Shown piece by piece: positions 484-6,472 of a stretch of 6,520 bases of DNA. Source of the DNA: Vibrio cholerae ATCC 14035 (GTDB lineage Bacteria; Pseudomonadota; Gammaproteobacteria; Enterobacterales; Vibrionaceae); assembly GCF_000621645.1 (NCBI RefSeq), contig NZ_JHXR01000048.1, positions 1 through 6,520 of the forward strand. The letters run 5' to 3'. The notes beneath the pieces are model-generated. The model did no database searches. It was not told where the DNA came from and saw only the letters and a program-made list of their open reading frames with translations. The first letter of the stretch is position 1, and every line of letters begins with the position of its first letter. Both the position numbers and the translations under genes were made by a program.

Positions 484-726
484 TTACTGAAATTGTTCAC
501 CATGATTTTCTAAAGTTGTGCTACCACAGATAGCACAAACAACATATCTATCTGTTAATTCTAACGAAACGCCACCAGGTAAAGAGGCTGCCGAACTACT
601 AAAAAATCCATCTAGAAATGCTTTGAACTGCTCTCTTTTGGACTTACCGTACTTTGATGGCTTTTGCTTCATCACTTCTTTATGTTCAGTGTTCTTCCCA
701 CACTTTTCACAAAACCTTGTGCTCAT
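484..726 (-). CDS. Small (80 aa) split zinc-ribbon protein, function unknown (cassette 1)
   Basis: The ATG at 726..724 is preceded by AGGAG with a 5-nt spacer (TTTCAGGAGATAGTATG). The product is MSTRFCEKCGKNTEHKEVMKQKPSKYGKSKREQFKAFLDGFFSSSAASLPGGVSLELTDRYVVCAICGSTTLENHGEQFQ. It has CxxC knuckles at both ends and a Lys-rich segment in between. The 125-aa track ORF (484..861) is longer only because it reads through VCR-B. Confidence 0.7.
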   Translation of the reverse strand: MSTRFCEKCGKNTEHKEVMKQKPSKYGKSKREQFKAFLDGFFSSSAASLPGGVSLELTDRYVVCAICGSTTLENHGEQFQ

Positions 727-807
727 ACTATCTCCTGAAATATTGCTAAAAAGAACTTCAAATCCAGCTTGGCTTTTTGGACTCTGCGATGAACTTTGAA
801 AGAGAGC

Positions 808-931
808 TAACGCCCGCCTAAGGGGCTGACAACGCATTACCACTAAACTCAAACACCACAACCGAAACCACTGCGGCTCAATGGGACTGGAAACGCCGCG
901 CGTTGACAGTCCCTCTTGAGGCGTTTGTTAT
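808..931 (-). repeat. attC recombination site (VCR-B), attC of cassette 2
   Basis: A consensus VCR. It differs from VCR-A only at a few central positions (caccacaaccgaaaccactgcgg). The esterase stop codon lies 3 nt from its R'' end. Confidence 0.95.
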
Positions 932-933
932 GT

Positions 934-1851
934 TTAATTTTTGATTGCATTTGCAATATTTCTAATACAACGCCTTGCAGACTCACTTACACCCGACAGT
1001 TGATAGAAACCATGTATTACACCTAGGTAACGTTCACAATAAGCGTCAACACCTTGGGAAAGAAGCAACCTGTACAACTGCTCTCCTTCATCTCGCAGTG
1101 GGTCATACTCAGCAGTGATAATCAAGGTTGGAGGTAAACCTTGAAGATCCTTTCGTGCCAATAGATTCAGTTCTTTTTCACTGGCCAACCGCTCTGACTC
1201 ACCCGCATAAAGCTGGAAACCGGACAACAACATTTGTGCAGTAATAATGAAATCTGTACCGTTTTTCTGATAACTATCAGACACCCCCAAGGGGTCAACC
1301 ATGGGATATATTAGGATTTGTTTCTCAGGTAGCCACAGCTTTTTATTTTTCAAACGAAGTGCTGTAGCAAGAGCTAATTGTGCACCTGCACTATCACCGA
1401 CAAAGAATACATGTTCAGTATCGCCGCCATATTTATGACCATGTTCTTTGATACCTAATGCGGCCTGAAATACATCATCATGAGCTGATGGGTATGCATG
1501 CTCTGGTGCTAAGCGGTACTTAATGCAAACTACTATAGTCTCTGATAAATGAGCTAACTGCCTTAGTTGTGCTTCATGTGTTTCAAAACCACCGCTAATG
1601 AAACAACCGCCATGAAAATAAATTGTAATTGGCAAATCAATTTTATCGCTTGGCTTATAAACTTTGACTTGTATGCCATCCAGCTCATCAACAAACTCAT
1701 CGGCCATTTCAGGACTTGAGCCAGCCAAAACCGTACTTGAGAGATAACCTGCCCGACGCTCAGAAATAGTTTGTTTTGATGGACAGGGTTTTCCACTAGA
1801 AATGAACTCTTCAACGAGTTCTTTAATGCCACGCTCTAGATAGTTGGTCAT
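934..1851 (-). CDS. Alpha/beta-hydrolase fold-3 esterase/lipase, family IV (hormone-sensitive-lipase type) (cassette 2)
   Basis: The family IV signature motifs are all present. These are the oxyanion-hole HGG (IYFHGGCF), the nucleophile elbow GDSAG (FVGDSAGAQLA), the acidic residue in YDPLRDEG, and the catalytic His in GVIHGF. I place the start at Met33 of the track ORF (ATG 1851..1849, MTNYLERG...). The alternative ATG at 1947..1945 overlaps the attC R' box (GTTATG) and would add 32 aa. Confidence 0.85.
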   Translation of the reverse strand: MTNYLERGIKELVEEFISSGKPCPSKQTISERRAGYLSSTVLAGSSPEMADEFVDELDGIQVKVYKPSDKIDLPITIYFHGGCFISGGFETHEAQLRQLAHLSETIVVCIKYRLAPEHAYPSAHDDVFQAALGIKEHGHKYGGDTEHVFFVGDSAGAQLALATALRLKNKKLWLPEKQILIYPMVDPLGVSDSYQKNGTDFIITAQMLLSGFQLYAGESERLASEKELNLLARKDLQGLPPTLIITAEYDPLRDEGEQLYRLLLSQGVDAYCERYLGVIHGFYQLSGVSESARRCIRNIANAIKN

Positions 1852-1946
1852 ATTTAATTCTTCGAATGTGTTCAAAGCTCGAGATGATAGCCGAACACAT
1901 AAAACTGTATATAAAAACAGTGGCAATTTGTGATACTGATTAAACA

Positions 1947-2069
1947 TAACGCCCGCCTAAGGGGCTGGCAACGCACTACCACTAAACTCAAATACAACAA
2001 CTGCAACCACCGCGGCTCATTGGACTGGAAACGCCACGCGTTGACAGTCCCTCTTGAGGCGTTTGTTAG
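1947..2069 (-). repeat. attC recombination site (VCR-C), attC of cassette 3
   Basis: A consensus VCR with a 1-nt deletion (ctcattggactgg instead of ctcattgggactgg) and a GGCTGGCAACGC variant. Confidence 0.95.
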
Positions 2070-2084
2070 CCGTTTTTTTCAAAC

Positions 2085-2387
2085 CTACTGTTTCGTAAGC
2101 ATTAACCGACGCAAATCTCGCTCCGCACGCATAACAAAAAGAATACGAACCTTTGCATCATCATACTTGTAGAAAACACGACACGGACTTACAACGACTT
2201 CACGATAATTGAGGTGTTCTAGTTCTGGAGGGACGCGCCCAGACTCTGGAAAATCGGCCAAACGTTCAACTTTTGTAAAAACGGTTTGCACCAGTTGTTT
2301 AGCAGCCACGACATTTTCAAGCGCGATGTATTCAGCAATATCATTCAAGTCGGATAGAGCCAGCTCCGTCCAAATTATTTCAACCAT
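2085..2387 (-). CDS. Type II toxin, ParE/RelE superfamily (ParE-like) (cassette 3)
   Basis: The 100-aa product starts MVEIIWTELALSDLNDIAEYIA... and ends ...RVFYKYDDAKVRILFVMRAERD, which is the typical ParE_toxin fold pattern. It overlaps the upstream antitoxin gene by 13 nt. Confidence 0.85.
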   Translation of the reverse strand: MVEIIWTELALSDLNDIAEYIALENVVAAKQLVQTVFTKVERLADFPESGRVPPELEHLNYREVVVSPCRVFYKYDDAKVRILFVMRAERDLRRLMLTKQ

Positions 2388-2632
2388 TTTGACATTCTGT
2401 CCTTAGCATCTTGATGGCTGACCACTTTACCATCCGCTAAAGCTCGCTCTCCGCGAGCAATACCTTCCAGGATCGCTAAACGATTTTGCATAAATTCATA
2501 GTCGTCTACATCAATAAGGTAAGCTGACGGTTTTCCGTGCTCAGTTATCAATACTGGCTCTTTCGTATCATGAAGATCGGCAAGGATCTTAGTGGCCTGA
2601 CGTTTTAGTGACGTCACAAGTTCTACTTTCAT
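2375..2632 (-). CDS. Type II antitoxin, Phd/YefM family (cassette 3)
   Basis: The 85-aa product MKVELVTSLKRQATKILADLHDTKEPVLITEHGKPSAYLIDVDDYEFMQNRL has the canonical Phd/YefM N-terminal domain. GGAG lies 8 nt upstream of the ATG. The gene sits directly upstream of, and overlaps, the toxin gene. Confidence 0.88.
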   Translation of the reverse strand: MKVELVTSLKRQATKILADLHDTKEPVLITEHGKPSAYLIDVDDYEFMQNRLAILEGIARGERALADGKVVSHQDAKDRMSKWLK

Positions 2633-2657
2633 TTGAGCTGCTCCAAAGAAATACTAA

Positions 2658-2690
2658 AGTGATACTATTCTATCACTCTAAGCATAGCAA
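2658..2690 (-). promoter_or_regulatory. Putative sigma70 promoter with overlapping operator palindrome for the phd/parE-like operon
   Basis: On the minus strand, TTGCTA (2690..2685) is followed by a 17-nt spacer and TAGTAT (2667..2662). A perfect inverted repeat AGTGATA-N6-TATCACT (2677..2658) covers the -10 element. Confidence 0.6.
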
Positions 2691-2703
2691 GCTTTCAAAC
2701 GGC

Positions 2704-2824
2704 TAACGCCCGCTTAAGGGGCAGCCAACGCCACTACTAACTTACCGTATAACACCGTAATCACAAAAACCAACGCATAGTAAAAATGCCGCGCGTTGGC
2801 TGTCCCTCTTGAAGCGTTTGTTAT
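2704..2824 (-). repeat. attC recombination site (attC-D), divergent non-consensus VCR relative, attC of cassette 4
   Basis: The ends are conserved (TAACGCCCGCTTAAGGGGC...CCCTCTTGAAGCGTTTGTTAT), but the inner arms and central ~70 nt are unrelated to the other eight copies. Length is 120 nt. The inner arms GCAGCCAACGC / GCGTTGGCTGTC remain complementary. Confidence 0.85.
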
Positions 2825-2833
2825 ATTCGTAGC

Positions 2834-3367
2834 CTATTGATTAAAAAGTTGTTCTACCGTTTTCATCGGTAAGAACATACGAATACGCTCATTATGTTCG
2901 CACAATACTTCAAAGCCGAACTTCGTATAGAACGCTTGAGCGGAATCTGTCAGACAATCCACAACTATTGCGTATGCTCTCATGTGATGATTCACTTCCC
3001 ACAAGTACTTCAGCGCACGGATTAGACTGACCTTTCCAAGTCCAGAACCGTGAAATTCTTTGTGCACAGCTAACTGAGCCAACAGAAAAACAGGGATTGG
3101 ATACCTCGGTAGTTTCTTTGCTAATTGTGCCGGTAATGTTTCTCGGCTGATTGAGCTCGGTGCAACACTATAAAAGGCACAAATAGCGAATTTTTGATTT
3201 AACAGTGGGTGAGCACTAGGTAAAACCATTGTTCGGCTAATACCTGCTTGCATGTGCTTTGCAGCTTGAGTTTTGATAAATGTGTTTAGCTCTTGCTCAC
3301 CACAGTCAAATGAGTCGCGGTCATGCTTTGATTTACTAAGTTCTACAAACTCTTTGCCCCAACTCAC
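2834..3367 (-). CDS. GNAT-family acetyltransferase toxin (TacT/AtaT/KacT-like) (cassette 4)
   Basis: The 177-aa product carries an N-terminal KHDRDSFDCGEQELNTFIK motif, the acetyl-CoA loop region QLAVHKEFHGSGLGK, and FYTKFGF. The start codon is GTG (3367..3365), forming a GTGA overlap with the antitoxin stop. It is paired with an upstream DUF1778 gene. Confidence 0.85.
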   Translation of the reverse strand: MSWGKEFVELSKSKHDRDSFDCGEQELNTFIKTQAAKHMQAGISRTMVLPSAHPLLNQKFAICAFYSVAPSSISRETLPAQLAKKLPRYPIPVFLLAQLAVHKEFHGSGLGKVSLIRALKYLWEVNHHMRAYAIVVDCLTDSAQAFYTKFGFEVLCEHNERIRMFLPMKTVEQLFNQ

Positions 3368-3633
3368 TTGATACCGCTCTTCTCTGTAAATTTAACAGCT
3401 TCAAGCAAAGCTTGATTCGGTGCTTTTACTTTATTACACGCAGCCATAAACTCGTCAAAAACACTGTCTTTAACCATAATACTTTCATGCTCCTCAATAA
3501 CATGAGTCGCATCTTCGTCCATAAGTCTCACCACATATTCAGTGAGACTTTTTAAACCAAGTAAAGCCGATGCCTTTTCAGCTTTTGCCTTGATCTCTTC
3601 ATCAAGGCGGATATCTAAACGTGCCGTTGCCAT
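3364..3633 (-). CDS. DUF1778 (ribbon-helix-helix, TacA/AtaR-like) antitoxin (cassette 4)
   Basis: The start ATG at 3633..3631 is preceded by AGGAGG (GCAGGAGGGGTTATG). The 89-aa product begins MATARLDIRLDEEIKAKAEKASALLGLKSLTEYVV, a typical DUF1778 N-terminus. The 141-aa track ORF is an artefactual extension into VCR-E. Confidence 0.85.
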   Translation of the reverse strand: MATARLDIRLDEEIKAKAEKASALLGLKSLTEYVVRLMDEDATHVIEEHESIMVKDSVFDEFMAACNKVKAPNQALLEAVKFTEKSGIK

Positions 3634-3672
3634 AACCCCTCCTGCGTACGGATACATTCCGTCAGTTGAGCG

Positions 3673-3701
3673 ATTATAGGCCAAACTTAAAGCACATTCA
3701 A
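3673..3701 (-). promoter_or_regulatory. Putative strong sigma70 promoter of the cassette-4 TA operon
   Basis: On the minus strand, TTGAAT (3701..3696) is followed by a 17-nt spacer and the perfect -10 TATAAT (3678..3673). It is bracketed by two copies of CCGTACG (complement of 3704..3710 and 3644..3650), each containing the CGTACG palindrome. Confidence 0.65.
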
Positions 3702-3735
3702 TTCGTACGGAAAGTTTACGGGGCGAGGGAGAATA

Positions 3736-3859
3736 TAACGCCCGTCTAAGGGGCTGACAACGCATGACCACTAAACTCAAACACAACAACTGTAACCATC
3801 GCGGCTCAATGGGACTGGAAACGCCACGCGTTGACAGTCCCTCTTGAGGCGTTTGTTAT
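3736..3859 (-). repeat. attC recombination site (VCR-E), attC of cassette 5
   Basis: A consensus VCR with minor variants (CCCGTCTAAGG, gcatgaccac). Its R'' TAA (3858..3856) serves as the stop codon of the MazG-like ORF. Confidence 0.95.
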
Positions 3860-4227
3860 GTGTGTGCTGATGATTGCTCTTGTTCTAGCTCTTTTTTCTG
3901 CTTGAGTTTCACCTCATCCCAAGAAATACCATTCTCGATTGCAGATACACGTTCTTCATATTTCCGACATGCTCTTTGGACTACAGACTCAATCTTAACT
4001 CCTGCCTCTTTTTCGAGAGACAGGATCGTATTTAGGTAGTCCCACAGCACATCACCTAATTCATCTTCGAGGTAACAGAGTCGATTCTTAGGGATTTCTT
4101 CGACAACTTCATCGACTTCTTGTTTAATCTCAGCCAGATAAGTAGATGAGCCTAAATACCAAGAATTATTCTTGTCGAATTCAGATTTTCGTTTGGCTAC
4201 TTCAAGCAATTTATCAAGATGTTGCAT
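3856..4227 (-). CDS. MazG-like nucleoside triphosphate pyrophosphohydrolase, small all-alpha integron-cassette type (cassette 5)
   Basis: The 123-aa product carries paired acidic metal-binding motifs spaced as in the MazG/all-alpha NTP-PPase family (EIKQEVDEVVEE ... EDELGDVLWDYL). GGGAAG lies 4 nt upstream of the ATG at 4227. Only ~20 nt separate the attC and the start. Confidence 0.75.
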   Translation of the reverse strand: MQHLDKLLEVAKRKSEFDKNNSWYLGSSTYLAEIKQEVDEVVEEIPKNRLCYLEDELGDVLWDYLNTILSLEKEAGVKIESVVQRACRKYEERVSAIENGISWDEVKLKQKKELEQEQSSAHT

Positions 4228-4247
4228 TTAACTTCCCACAAAACACA

Positions 4248-4371
4248 TAACGCCCGCCTAAGGGGCTGGCAACGCAATACCACTGAACTCAACCACAACA
4301 ACCATAACCACTGCGGCTCATTGGGACTGGAAACGCCACGCGTTGACAGTCCCTCTTGAGGCGTTTGTTAT
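4248..4371 (-). repeat. attC recombination site (VCR-F), attC of cassette 6
   Basis: A consensus VCR. Its R'' TAA (4370..4368) serves as the stop codon of the cassette-6 ORF. Confidence 0.95.
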
Positions 4372-4655
4372 GCATTTTTTGCACTATTTAATGACGTTAT
4401 CATTATTTTAGCCATCTCAAGCTTTGTTTCTTTATCAGCAGTATCCTCAACAACTTTGAATGAGAGTAATACATTCTGAATATCAACTAAGCTATCGTGA
4501 TAGCCTTTCAATTGTTGTGTTGTTTTACTATAGAGCCAGAAGAATACACCAGAGATAAACTCTACAATCACGCCAGATCCCGCAGATATATAAGCAACAG
4601 AATCTGCATTAGTACATATTATGGCTTCCGCTATGGCATTTAATGCATTTTCCAA
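4368..4655 (-). CDS. Orphan 95-aa protein with one hydrophobic/TM segment and a helical acidic-basic tail; function unknown (cassette 6)
   Basis: The start codon is TTG (4655..4653), with a strong SD AAGGAG 7 nt upstream (AGAAAGGAGTTAATCTTTGGAA). There is no in-frame ATG until near the C-terminus. The product is MENALNAIAEAIICTNADSVAYISAGSGVIVEFISGVFFWLYSKTTQQLKGYHDSLVDIQNVLLSFKVVEDTADKETKLEMAKIMITSLNSAKNA. Confidence 0.7.
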   Translation of the reverse strand: MENALNAIAEAIICTNADSVAYISAGSGVIVEFISGVFFWLYSKTTQQLKGYHDSLVDIQNVLLSFKVVEDTADKETKLEMAKIMITSLNSAKNA

Positions 4656-4676
4656 AGATTAACTCCTTTCTAAAAC

Positions 4677-4800
4677 TAACGCCCGCCTAAGGGGCTGACA
4701 ACGCATTACCACTAAACTCAAACACAATAACTGTAACCACCGCGGCTCATTGGGACTGGAAACGCCACGCGTTGACAGTCCCTCTTGAGGCGTTTGTTAT
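4677..4800 (-). repeat. attC recombination site (VCR-G), attC of cassette 7
   Basis: A consensus VCR. On the minus strand the R' core is GTTAGTT. Confidence 0.95.
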
Positions 4801-4806
4801 ATGAAT

Positions 4807-5475
4807 TTAATCTTTCGTCACGTTAACTTCTCGCAACCAAAACTTAGGGTTATGCGAGCCATCATGAGTTTTGCCTTTTGAGATCATTATTCGGCACAGT
4901 GCTAACGCAGTAATAGGAATTAACACATGAAAAACAAACCCAACTGAACAATTTTCTTTGTATGTCGATAGTGAAAAGATCACTAACACACACCAGATAA
5001 ACAACGTAAAGACAGCAACCCATTGGTTAATTTTAGAAACAGAGTATCGTTGAGGGCCTGTTATATATTTTTTACAGAACTCACTTTCAGGCGGTCGTTC
5101 CAAAAAGGATTTGTATAATGGCCCTGTAACGCTATCTTCTAGAAGATCTAGATGATTTTCCCAGTTTTCCTGCCAATACTTGCTACCTTTATTCGCAGAA
5201 AACCAAGCGAAAGTAAAAACAAAACCAGTTGAAGCAATTATTGTTAGGAACAGCGACTGACCACCACCTTTAAAATCTCCTGAAGCTACGGCAAAGAAGC
5301 CGGCAAAGGCAACCGCTATCAATGCCCAAAAATACGTCGCTCTTTTCCAGTAAAGCTCGATTTCAAACTTTCGTATATCTGAAGCTTGAGCAAATGCCGA
5401 CTGTAATAAAATAGAGTGCGATTTATCTGTCTCAAATTTCTTTATGTATTCTTCTTTATCGTACTGTTTACTCAT
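4807..5475 (-). CDS. Orphan 222-aa integral membrane protein with two TM hairpins (4 TM); function unknown (cassette 7)
   Basis: I place the start at Met26 of the track ORF (ATG 5475..5473), which is preceded by TAGGAAA (AATAGGAAACATATG). The earlier ATG at 5490 sits in the attC R' box (GTTATATG), and the one at 5550 lies inside VCR-H. The TM segments are YFWALIAVAFAGFFAVA, LFLTIIASTGFVFTFAWFSA, WVAVFTLFIWCVLVIFSL and VGFVFHVLIPITALALCRIMI. A Trp/acidic-rich loop, KYWQENWENHLDLLED, follows the first hairpin. Confidence 0.75.
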   Translation of the reverse strand: MSKQYDKEEYIKKFETDKSHSILLQSAFAQASDIRKFEIELYWKRATYFWALIAVAFAGFFAVASGDFKGGGQSLFLTIIASTGFVFTFAWFSANKGSKYWQENWENHLDLLEDSVTGPLYKSFLERPPESEFCKKYITGPQRYSVSKINQWVAVFTLFIWCVLVIFSLSTYKENCSVGFVFHVLIPITALALCRIMISKGKTHDGSHNPKFWLREVNVTKD

Positions 5476-5705: not shown

Positions 5706-5978
5706 ATGGCAACGACTTTGCCTCGCATCACCGCTAGAGTTGATGTCGATACTCAAGATTTACTCGCTAAGGCTGCTGCTCTTGCTGGTATGTCTAGTAT
5801 TAACTCATTTGTTTTGAATGCAGCAATCGAAAAAGCAAAACAAGTCATTGAACGTGAGCAAGCTCTAAAGCTTAGCCAAGCTGATGCCGTATTGCTGATG
5901 GAAGCTCTTGATAATCCAGCTGTAGTAAATGCAAAGCTCAAATTGGCATCCGAACGTTATGAGAGCAAAACTCAATGA
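5706..5978 (+). CDS. DUF1778 (RHH, TacA/AtaR-like) antitoxin, in a cassette inverted relative to the array (cassette 8)
   Basis: The 90-aa product MATTLPRITARVDVDTQDLLAKAAALAGMSSINSFVLNAAIEKA has the typical DUF1778 pattern. AGGAG lies 8 nt upstream. It forms an ATGA overlap with the downstream GNAT gene. Confidence 0.87.
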   Translation: MATTLPRITARVDVDTQDLLAKAAALAGMSSINSFVLNAAIEKAKQVIEREQALKLSQADAVLLMEALDNPAVVNAKLKLASERYESKTQ

Positions 5979-6472
5979 TGAATACGGTACTTCTCGATAA
6001 AGATAAGCACGATAGGAACCGTTTCAATTGTGGCACTGAAGCACTCAACAATTACTTAAAAGTAATGGCGAGTCAGCAAGCCAAAAAAGACAACACCAGA
6101 ACCTTCGTTTTGGAAGATGACAATAACAGTGCTTATATCATCGGCTTTTACACTCTGACTATGACGCCCATTGATTTGAAAGCCTTGCCCGACAAGTTAC
6201 AAAAGAAGCACCAATCCTCAACCTCTGGAGGGCTCATTGCTCGTTTAGCTGTCGACGATAGATACAAAGGAAAAGGTTTTGGTGAGTGGCTACTCATTGA
6301 CGCTCTCAGAAAGCTACTCGCAGCCAGTGACAGTGTAGCGTTCCCTGTTGTCATTGTTGATGCCAAAGATGGTGCAAAACATTTCTATGAGCGCTATGGG
6401 TTTCAAGCGTTTCAAGATGCCGAAAACAAACTCTTCATCACCATTGCTGATATCAGAGCAAGCTTAGGCTAG
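5975..6472 (+). CDS. GNAT-family acetyltransferase toxin (TacT/AtaT-like), in the inverted cassette (cassette 8)
   Basis: The 165-aa product carries KHDRNRFNCGTEALNNYLK, the acetyl-CoA loop RLAVDDRYKGKGFG, and FYERYGF. It is translationally coupled to the DUF1778 gene. Confidence 0.87.
   Translation: MMNTVLLDKDKHDRNRFNCGTEALNNYLKVMASQQAKKDNTRTFVLEDDNNSAYIIGFYTLTMTPIDLKALPDKLQKKHQSSTSGGLIARLAVDDRYKGKGFGEWLLIDALRKLLAASDSVAFPVVIVDAKDGAKHFYERYGFQAFQDAENKLFITIADIRASLG

Follow-up and report, generated by a model that had tools for sequence, protein, structure and literature searches.

The 6,520-nt window analysed here (the whole stretch of DNA, in whose positions all coordinates are given unless a locus is named) is part of the Vibrio cholerae superintegron. 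Along it lie eight copies of a VCR-type attC repeat, each of about 125 nt, and the cassettes are carried by the minus strand in all cases but one. Pfam matches within the window point to an Abhydrolase_3 esterase, a TacA-GNAT pair, a MazG protein and an 8xMP membrane protein; a second TacA-GNAT pair and a Phd/ParE pair were named through the Pfam matches of an identical V. cholerae locus (L002). The two TacA-like antitoxin / GNAT toxin pairs occupy positions 5706-6472 (plus) and 2834-3636 (minus), one of them being inverted relative to the cassette array, and the Phd/ParE-like pair, at 2085-2632, corresponds to VCA0488/0489. A divergent VCR attC variant at 2700-2827 was not recovered in the 136-nt repeat family; the 44 nt at its 3' end share 89% identity with the reference copy. 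The Rfam scan of the window gave no match. The order published for strain N16961 comprises the mazG-related VCA0485, the ParE-like VCA0489 and the GDXG lipase VCA0490, which places the ORF studied here at approximately VCA0484, adjoining VCA0485. The cassette belongs to the superintegron of pandemic strains, and VCA0484 is not mentioned in the literature that was searched.

The cassette is made up of a 24-nt leader, a 288-nt ORF and a VCR-type attC (Table 1). An attC of this type is found at every cassette, and the start-to-start spacing of the repeats is 429 bp for this one. The core sites agree: the R' core GTTAGTT of the upstream attC, at 4680-4674 (minus strand), sets the cassette start at 4679, and the R' G of the cassette's own attC lies at 4251. 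The length and limits given in a preliminary description of this DNA are thus upheld. With an ORF in cassette sense, attC R''/R' cores at both ends and no promoter of its own, the unit has the make-up of a VCR-type integron cassette; neither a sigma-70-like promoter nor a terminator was found within the 429 bp. Taken alone, its attC matches VCR-type repeats on plasmids of Vibrio and other origins.

Table 1. Features of the 429-bp cassette and of the gene upstream of it (window positions).
Feature	Positions	Strand	Basis
Integron gene cassette, 429 bp	4251..4679	minus	VCR repeat spacing of 429 bp; core sites read from sequence
Cassette leader	4656..4679	minus	AAGGAG at 4668-4663 and in-frame TAA at 4661-4659; read from sequence
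ORF, 95 aa (TTG start 4655-4653, TAA stop 4370-4368)	4368..4655	minus	ORF list and homologues
Codons 1-14/15 (MENALNAIAEAIIC, with or without the following T), unlike full-length family genes	4613..4655	minus	V. diabolicus similarity begins at CTAATGC
Family-derived 3' part, residues 15/16-95	4371..4612	minus	Equals the last 80 residues of a 265-274 aa protein
Pfam PF20712 match, residues 16-49 (profile positions 35-68 of 68)	4509..4610	minus	Pfam scan
Single transmembrane (TM) helix, residues 20-42, VAYISAGSGVIVEFISGVFFWLY	4530..4598	minus	Hydropathy and invariant columns; equals TM4 of the full-length protein
Helical tail, residues 43-94 (predicted cytoplasmic)	4374..4529	minus	AlphaFold2 helices and conservation
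VCR-type attC	4251..4370	minus	R'' TAACAAAC at 4370-4363 to R' G at 4251; repeat families D1 and D2
Upstream neighbour gene, 222 aa, four hydrophobic segments	4807..5475	minus	Pfam PF24838 8xMP, E = 4.9e-40

The TTG start codon is separated from the AAGGAG motif by a 7-nt spacer (TTAATCT). The in-frame TAA of the leader, two codons before the TTG, excludes any upstream extension of the ORF. As the preliminary description had read it, no usable ATG exists: there is none in frame near the start, and methionine is found internally only at codons 81 and 85. The sole other candidate start, a GTG at codon 29, is the source of older 67-aa annotations (P0193). At the other end, the attC R'' box opens with the three bases of the stop codon. 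Translation is plausible, since random DNA would seldom place a canonical AAGGAG at the optimal distance ahead of an in-frame start, and the ORF itself is not a chance one, having homologues at E = 1.7e-52 to 1e-21.

The exact 95-aa sequence is recorded on at least 1000 contigs, where NCBI and UniRef call it either "hypothetical protein" or "TRADD-N-associated membrane domain-containing protein". Both the protein and its family assignment are therefore already in public annotation and are not a new find; the preliminary description had suggested that ATG-only gene callers could miss the product, but it has been called. Among the four alleles recorded for V. cholerae, variation is confined to residues 2-5, 7, 13 and 95, and residues 16-94 show no change. 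The second 95-aa allele (P0204, WP_119469236.1) begins MVKEINAIAEAILCT instead of MENALNAIAEAIICT; 5 of its first 15 residues differ from those of the window protein and residues 16-95 are identical. The string MVKE also occurs in the full-length protein described below, 36 residues before NADS. One record labelled Klebsiella pneumoniae (P0201, WP_368734234.1), an 84-aa part of the V. cholerae protein on a contig of 488 bp, is probably contamination.

The 95-aa protein has one hydrophobic segment, which contains a conserved Gly/Ser motif and Glu32. Its best 19-residue Kyte-Doolittle window scores 1.69, a value taken from the V. diabolicus protein, whose residues are identical here. The tail that follows carries the conserved motifs YHDSL, QNxLLSFK and xDT. 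AlphaFold2 places helices at residues 2-15, 17-71 and 75-94 (mean pLDDT 80.8). If translated, the product is predicted to be a single-pass inner-membrane protein, and its short acidic N-terminus would face the outside of the cell with the helical tail, some 50 residues long, inside. Hydropathy and the modelled helices accord with the layout proposed at the outset, a Glu-containing hydrophobic segment followed by a helical tail.

The resemblance put forward in the preliminary description, to the second TM helix and C-terminal helix of two-TM modules, also proved sound. The protein matches Pfam PF20712 (CyanoTRADDas_TM, "Cyanobacterial TRADD-N associated 2-Transmembrane domain"), scoring 30.9 bits where the gathering cut-off is 24.3 (E = 2.9e-7). 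The match is restricted to the second TM helix, the complete two-TM hairpin (positions 1-68) being absent; full-length relatives are matched over positions 4-68. The family motif GSG..EFI..FFxLY..T..YHDSL..QNxLLxFK is present, and every one of the nearly or fully invariant columns is kept (G28, E32, F33, I34, F38, F39, L41, Y42, T45, Y52, H53, S55, L56, Q60, N61, L63, L64 and K67). The pattern quoted in the preliminary description, EFIxxxFFxLY...YHxxL, consists of such columns. A HMMER search of the full library returned 787 representatives at E <= 1e-3, mostly proteins of 250-330 aa matched at their C-terminus, so that the term "orphan" has to be dropped in view of at least 787 representative relatives.

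Scanning one genome per species yielded 50 loci, distributed over Shewanella, Paenibacillus, Chloroflexota, Acidobacteriota, Bacteroidota, Clostridia and Methanothrix. The family ORF measures 242-360 aa in 50 of 55 independent loci. Outside this range are L029 with an ORF of 198 aa, L004 with a half-size copy of 129 aa, and two decayed fragments, L050 and L058. PF20712 is the sole Pfam match in all 134 nearest representatives. No TRADD-N domain was found in the 7 window proteins, in 10 longer relatives or in these 134 representatives, and the flanking ORFs, compared all against all, revealed no conserved neighbour. With PF20712 alone and no constant partner, the clade is a self-contained, single-gene membrane protein, to which the TRADD-N name does not apply. 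Neither PF20712 nor CyanoTRADDas_TM is mentioned in the literature searched.

Two side observations concern loci of the family. The half-size copy (L004, 176-565; TM3, TM4 and tail), on a metagenome contig, lies directly upstream of a pair of GajA-like (OLD-TOPRIM/AAA) and GajB-like (UvrD) genes at 707-4565; the sequence preceding it is unrelated and contains an in-frame stop. In three genomes, short public gene calls of 88-116 aa sit within intact family ORFs of 260-274 aa: 116 aa in V. diabolicus (L001, 3527-4351), 89 aa in V. cholerae (L060, 2473-3270) and 88 aa in S. maritima (L005, 6001-6783), the last one starting on an ATA codon. Such calls are an annotation artefact of the pipelines.

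Hydropathy of the V. diabolicus full-length protein reveals four TM segments, of which TM4 is the least hydrophobic (1.69 vs 2.13-2.44). The AlphaFold2 model of the 274-aa Vibrio full-length protein consists of six long helices (mean pLDDT 79.6, pTM 0.64). The V. diabolicus copy is made of two helical hairpins, each flanked by long helices, and the conserved core of the intact relatives is the second hairpin together with its flanking helices. Conservation is highest in the helix preceding TM3 (YFDxLVxIN..NLxxYYxxVKxHTxxSF), in TM4 (GSG..EFI..FFxLY) and in the next helix (YHDSL..QNxLLSFK). An internal duplication of the full-length protein was considered and not accepted as homology, hhalign giving a probability of 24% for the N-terminal against the C-terminal half. 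Comparison of the full-length model with solved and viral structures yielded no significant likeness, and PADLOC, PHROGs and NCBIfam gave no significant match for either the fragment or the full-length relatives. Below threshold, the N-terminal hairpin of the full-length relatives examined (P0159, P0161 and P0010) matches SieB with 23.4 bits against a cut-off of 26; their TM3-TM4 region matches NheB, T6SS_Burk_ExIF and MotA at E of about 1e-3, far below the cut-offs; and the AhlB pre-pore is among the weak Foldseek matches (E = 2.3). All of these may reflect the composition of hydrophobic hairpins alone.

Intact versions of the gene exist as cassettes in V. diabolicus (L001, 3527..4351, about 0.8 kb from intI), in V. 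parahaemolyticus (P0159) and in V. cholerae itself (L060, 2473..3270, with a VCR attC on either side); the Shewanella full-length copy is a single gene. From the sequence CTAATGC at codon 15/16 to the stop codon, the window cassette is 96.7% identical in nucleotides to the V. diabolicus one, and the last 80 codons show 8 synonymous and no non-synonymous differences. Upstream of CTAATGC the two cassettes are unrelated. With the full-length V. cholerae allele of L060, identity over this 3' part is 83.5%. Alignment, hydropathy and model all set the 95-aa ORF apart from the architecture of the stand-alone four-TM clade (about 250-320 aa): it lacks about 185 residues, which comprise TM1 to TM3 as well as the conserved helix ahead of TM3. 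The preliminary description was thus right in suspecting a truncation, only the last 80 codons of a 265-274 aa protein being retained, and wrong in taking the lost part for a sensor, since it belongs to the same membrane protein.

On the downstream side, comparison of window positions 4363-4375 (minus) with L001 4340-4440 shows that the 97% similarity ends exactly at GCATAACAAA, the attC R'' box. Past this box, the V. cholerae and V. diabolicus cassettes each have an attC of their own species type. The canonical integrase crossover takes place at R', not R''; a similarity ending at R'' fits the old puzzle of how host-specific attC sites are acquired.

The segment preceding the family-derived part is 66 nt long. 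It includes the 24-nt leader with the Shine-Dalgarno (SD) motif, the TTG and 14-15 new codons, and has the layout of an ordinary cassette 5' end. Given that a canonical AAGGAG and an in-frame start would rarely coincide by chance, this segment presumably once served as a real translation start region. Its source was sought in three ways. When the segment was aligned locally, on both strands, with the 5' portions of full-length cassettes and with 60 loci, the scores did not exceed those of shuffled controls. Metagenome contigs scanned for exact 22-mers yielded a single match, put down to chance, between genes in unrelated DNA, and blastn against plasmids matched only the VCR attC. MAFFT aligned MENALNAIAEAII opposite SLLNSIEERIS of the full-length N-terminus, but this was not accepted as a sign of an in-frame internal deletion: nucleotide identity between these two stretches, compared by hand, is about 48%, vs 97% in the 3' part. 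P0160, a full-length allele, and P0207 match the fragment without any difference over residues 15-95. Upstream of P0160, the translation CVASPLGGRY appears to correspond to the 3' end of a VCR, suggesting that a suitable donor exists within a VCR array.

Altogether, we read the cassette as a chimeric, 5'-truncated copy of a PF20712 single-gene membrane-protein cassette, which probably persists as a translatable relic without the function of the family. The likely route would be a deletion that started inside an upstream cassette, ran across its attC and ended in the PF20712 gene; most simply, the 66-nt segment would have been the start region of that other cassette. The surviving part is the last 80 codons, which encode TM4 and its conserved Glu together with the YHDS motif and the C-terminal helices, and the fragment would now be a passenger in the largely silent superintegron of the pandemic lineage. 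Deprived of three of four TM helices and of the YFDxLVxIN..NLxxYY helix, it presumably cannot do the job of the intact protein, which we would guess to be a self-contained membrane-acting module of conflict or stress systems. The decayed family fragments found elsewhere (L050 and L058) lend support to a relic. On the other hand, the SD and start region look real, and residues 16-94 are the same in all four V. cholerae alleles. The absence of non-synonymous changes, against 8 synonymous ones relative to V. diabolicus, indicates either a very recent truncation or continued purifying selection. Moreover, the existence of half-size two-TM forms of 129-155 aa (P0006-P0009) indicates that smaller versions of the family are tolerated. 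To the preliminary description the ORF looked like a genuine gene. This holds inasmuch as the ORF is real and has homologues; a function of its own is unproven, the ORF being a chimeric 3' fragment.

The same counterpoints could mean that the fragment is a functional minimal single-pass membrane protein, a possibility that we take seriously but consider doubtful. It could self-assemble through the Gly/Ser/Glu face of its TM helix and its amphipathic tail and act as a holin- or abortive-infection-like effector; alternatively, it could bind, modulate or block full-length PF20712 proteins, as a dominant-negative or immunity-like partner. A strong SD sequence with an in-frame start, an ORF intact on all those contigs, allelic changes confined to positions outside residues 16-94 and the purely synonymous divergence from the V. 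diabolicus allele would all be expected of a working protein. The retained region is also the best conserved one: full-length alleles differ there by 33 synonymous vs 6 non-synonymous codons, whereas their N-terminal part is less constrained (60 synonymous vs 43 non-synonymous). In addition, very small anti-phage proteins do occur in the same integron, for example the 64-aa TutA. However, the contigs probably represent for the most part one clonal pandemic lineage, so that their number says little about selection, and a recent full-length donor could have passed the conservation on, P0160 and P0207 being identical over the shared part. The fragment lacks the hairpin partner TM3 and the conserved helix before it, and it has no PADLOC or PHROGs match. 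Its position may also tell against a defence role: in the available part of the report by Darracq et al. (bioRxiv 10.1101/2024.07.02.601686), 88 N16961 cassettes were tested and 16 were anti-phage, numbered 308-458, a range that would exclude the present locus as judged from its position.

The more specific proposal that the fragment has been kept because it works, either as a decoy that inserts into or caps full-length PF20712 oligomers or as one of the smallest autonomous membrane effectors of an integron, seems to us rather unlikely. Were it correct, the variants beginning MENAL... and MVKEI... would bespeak selection for a translated C-terminal core with a leader free to vary.

At the opposite extreme, the ORF could be untranslated and the cassette silent DNA, with AAGGAG-TTG a leftover of another cassette's start that has no current role. 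TTG is a weak start codon, the cassette contains no promoter-like site, and it probably lies far from the integron promoter, as judged from its position near VCA0484 relative to intI at VCA0291. Cassettes of this integron have, furthermore, been described as poorly or not expressed under laboratory conditions. We nonetheless find this reading improbable. The SD sequence and its spacing are near optimal, nearby toxin-antitoxin cassettes are reported to have weak promoters inside the array, and silence at the present position does not bar expression after shuffling to the first position.

There remains the neighbourhood. As initially pointed out, the cassette adjoins, in cassette sense, an upstream one encoding a protein with four hydrophobic segments, which we recognized by reading the sequence. 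The protein belongs to PF24838, "Octameric membrane protein family (8xMP)", and shows in addition a weak NCBIfam SLATT_1 match (E = 0.052) far below the cut-off. In tblastn searches, it matched only two V. cholerae loci of the same array order; leaving aside the V. cholerae arrangement itself, none of the 55 family loci has an 8xMP homologue at a distance of up to about 8 kb, and the full-length PF20712 alleles adjoin unrelated genes. Adjacency to 8xMP thus appears to reflect inherited array order and not functional pairing, and the co-occurrence of the two cassettes envisaged in the preliminary description is not borne out. Neither 8xMP nor PF24838 is mentioned in the literature searched. That the fragment is a TRADD-N-coupled conflict module minus its sensor, or works together with the upstream 8xMP cassette, would agree with the Pfam family name, the above-threshold match and this adjacency, but it is largely refuted, and in our view most improbable, given relatives free of TRADD-N or any other added domain, a missing part that is TM1-TM3 of the same protein, and family loci with neither 8xMP nor any other conserved neighbour.

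Its sequence and family being already annotated, the fragment matters little by itself. The cassette does, however, offer a clean and datable case of a superintegron making a chimeric, still translatable cassette, and as such bears on how new small ORFs arise in integrons. Should the fragment turn out to act on its full-length relatives, it would provide a handle on a very widespread, uncharacterised family of membrane proteins, present in bacteria and Methanothrix.

Among known systems, membrane effectors of abortive infection such as SclB (RexB-like, from the Sucellos system of the same integron) and SieB resemble the fragment in being small helical membrane proteins found in defence contexts. 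This serves as a working analogy only: there is no significant similarity in sequence or fold, and the SieB-like region of the full-length relatives is absent from the window copy. Pfam defines PF20712 as a two-TM domain tied to TRADD-N in cyanobacteria; the window copy matches it above threshold, yet departs from that definition in that no TRADD-N is present in the window or in the nearest relatives scanned. TRADD-N systems are described by Kaur et al. 2021 (PMC8195603), the main text of which does not describe the PF20712 TM domain. Close counterparts are the full-length "TRADD-N-associated membrane domain-containing" proteins of V. parahaemolyticus (P0159, WP_341848621.1), V. cholerae (L060) and Shewanella carassii (P0161). 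Over its last 80 residues the fragment shows 100% identity with P0159 and 85% with S. carassii (L009); the motifs are shared, as is, for the Vibrio copies, the setting in an integron cassette. These proteins, however, are 260-274 aa long with four TM helices, according to the hydropathy of the V. diabolicus copy, whereas the window copy has a single TM helix, starts on a TTG and carries 15 foreign residues at its N-terminus. The half-size two-TM forms (P0006, 129 aa; P0007-P0009, 148-155 aa) are also reduced and also keep the C-terminal core, but they preserve the PF20712 hairpin in full (TM3 plus TM4) as well as the NLxxYY helix, whereas the window copy has kept TM4 and the tail only.
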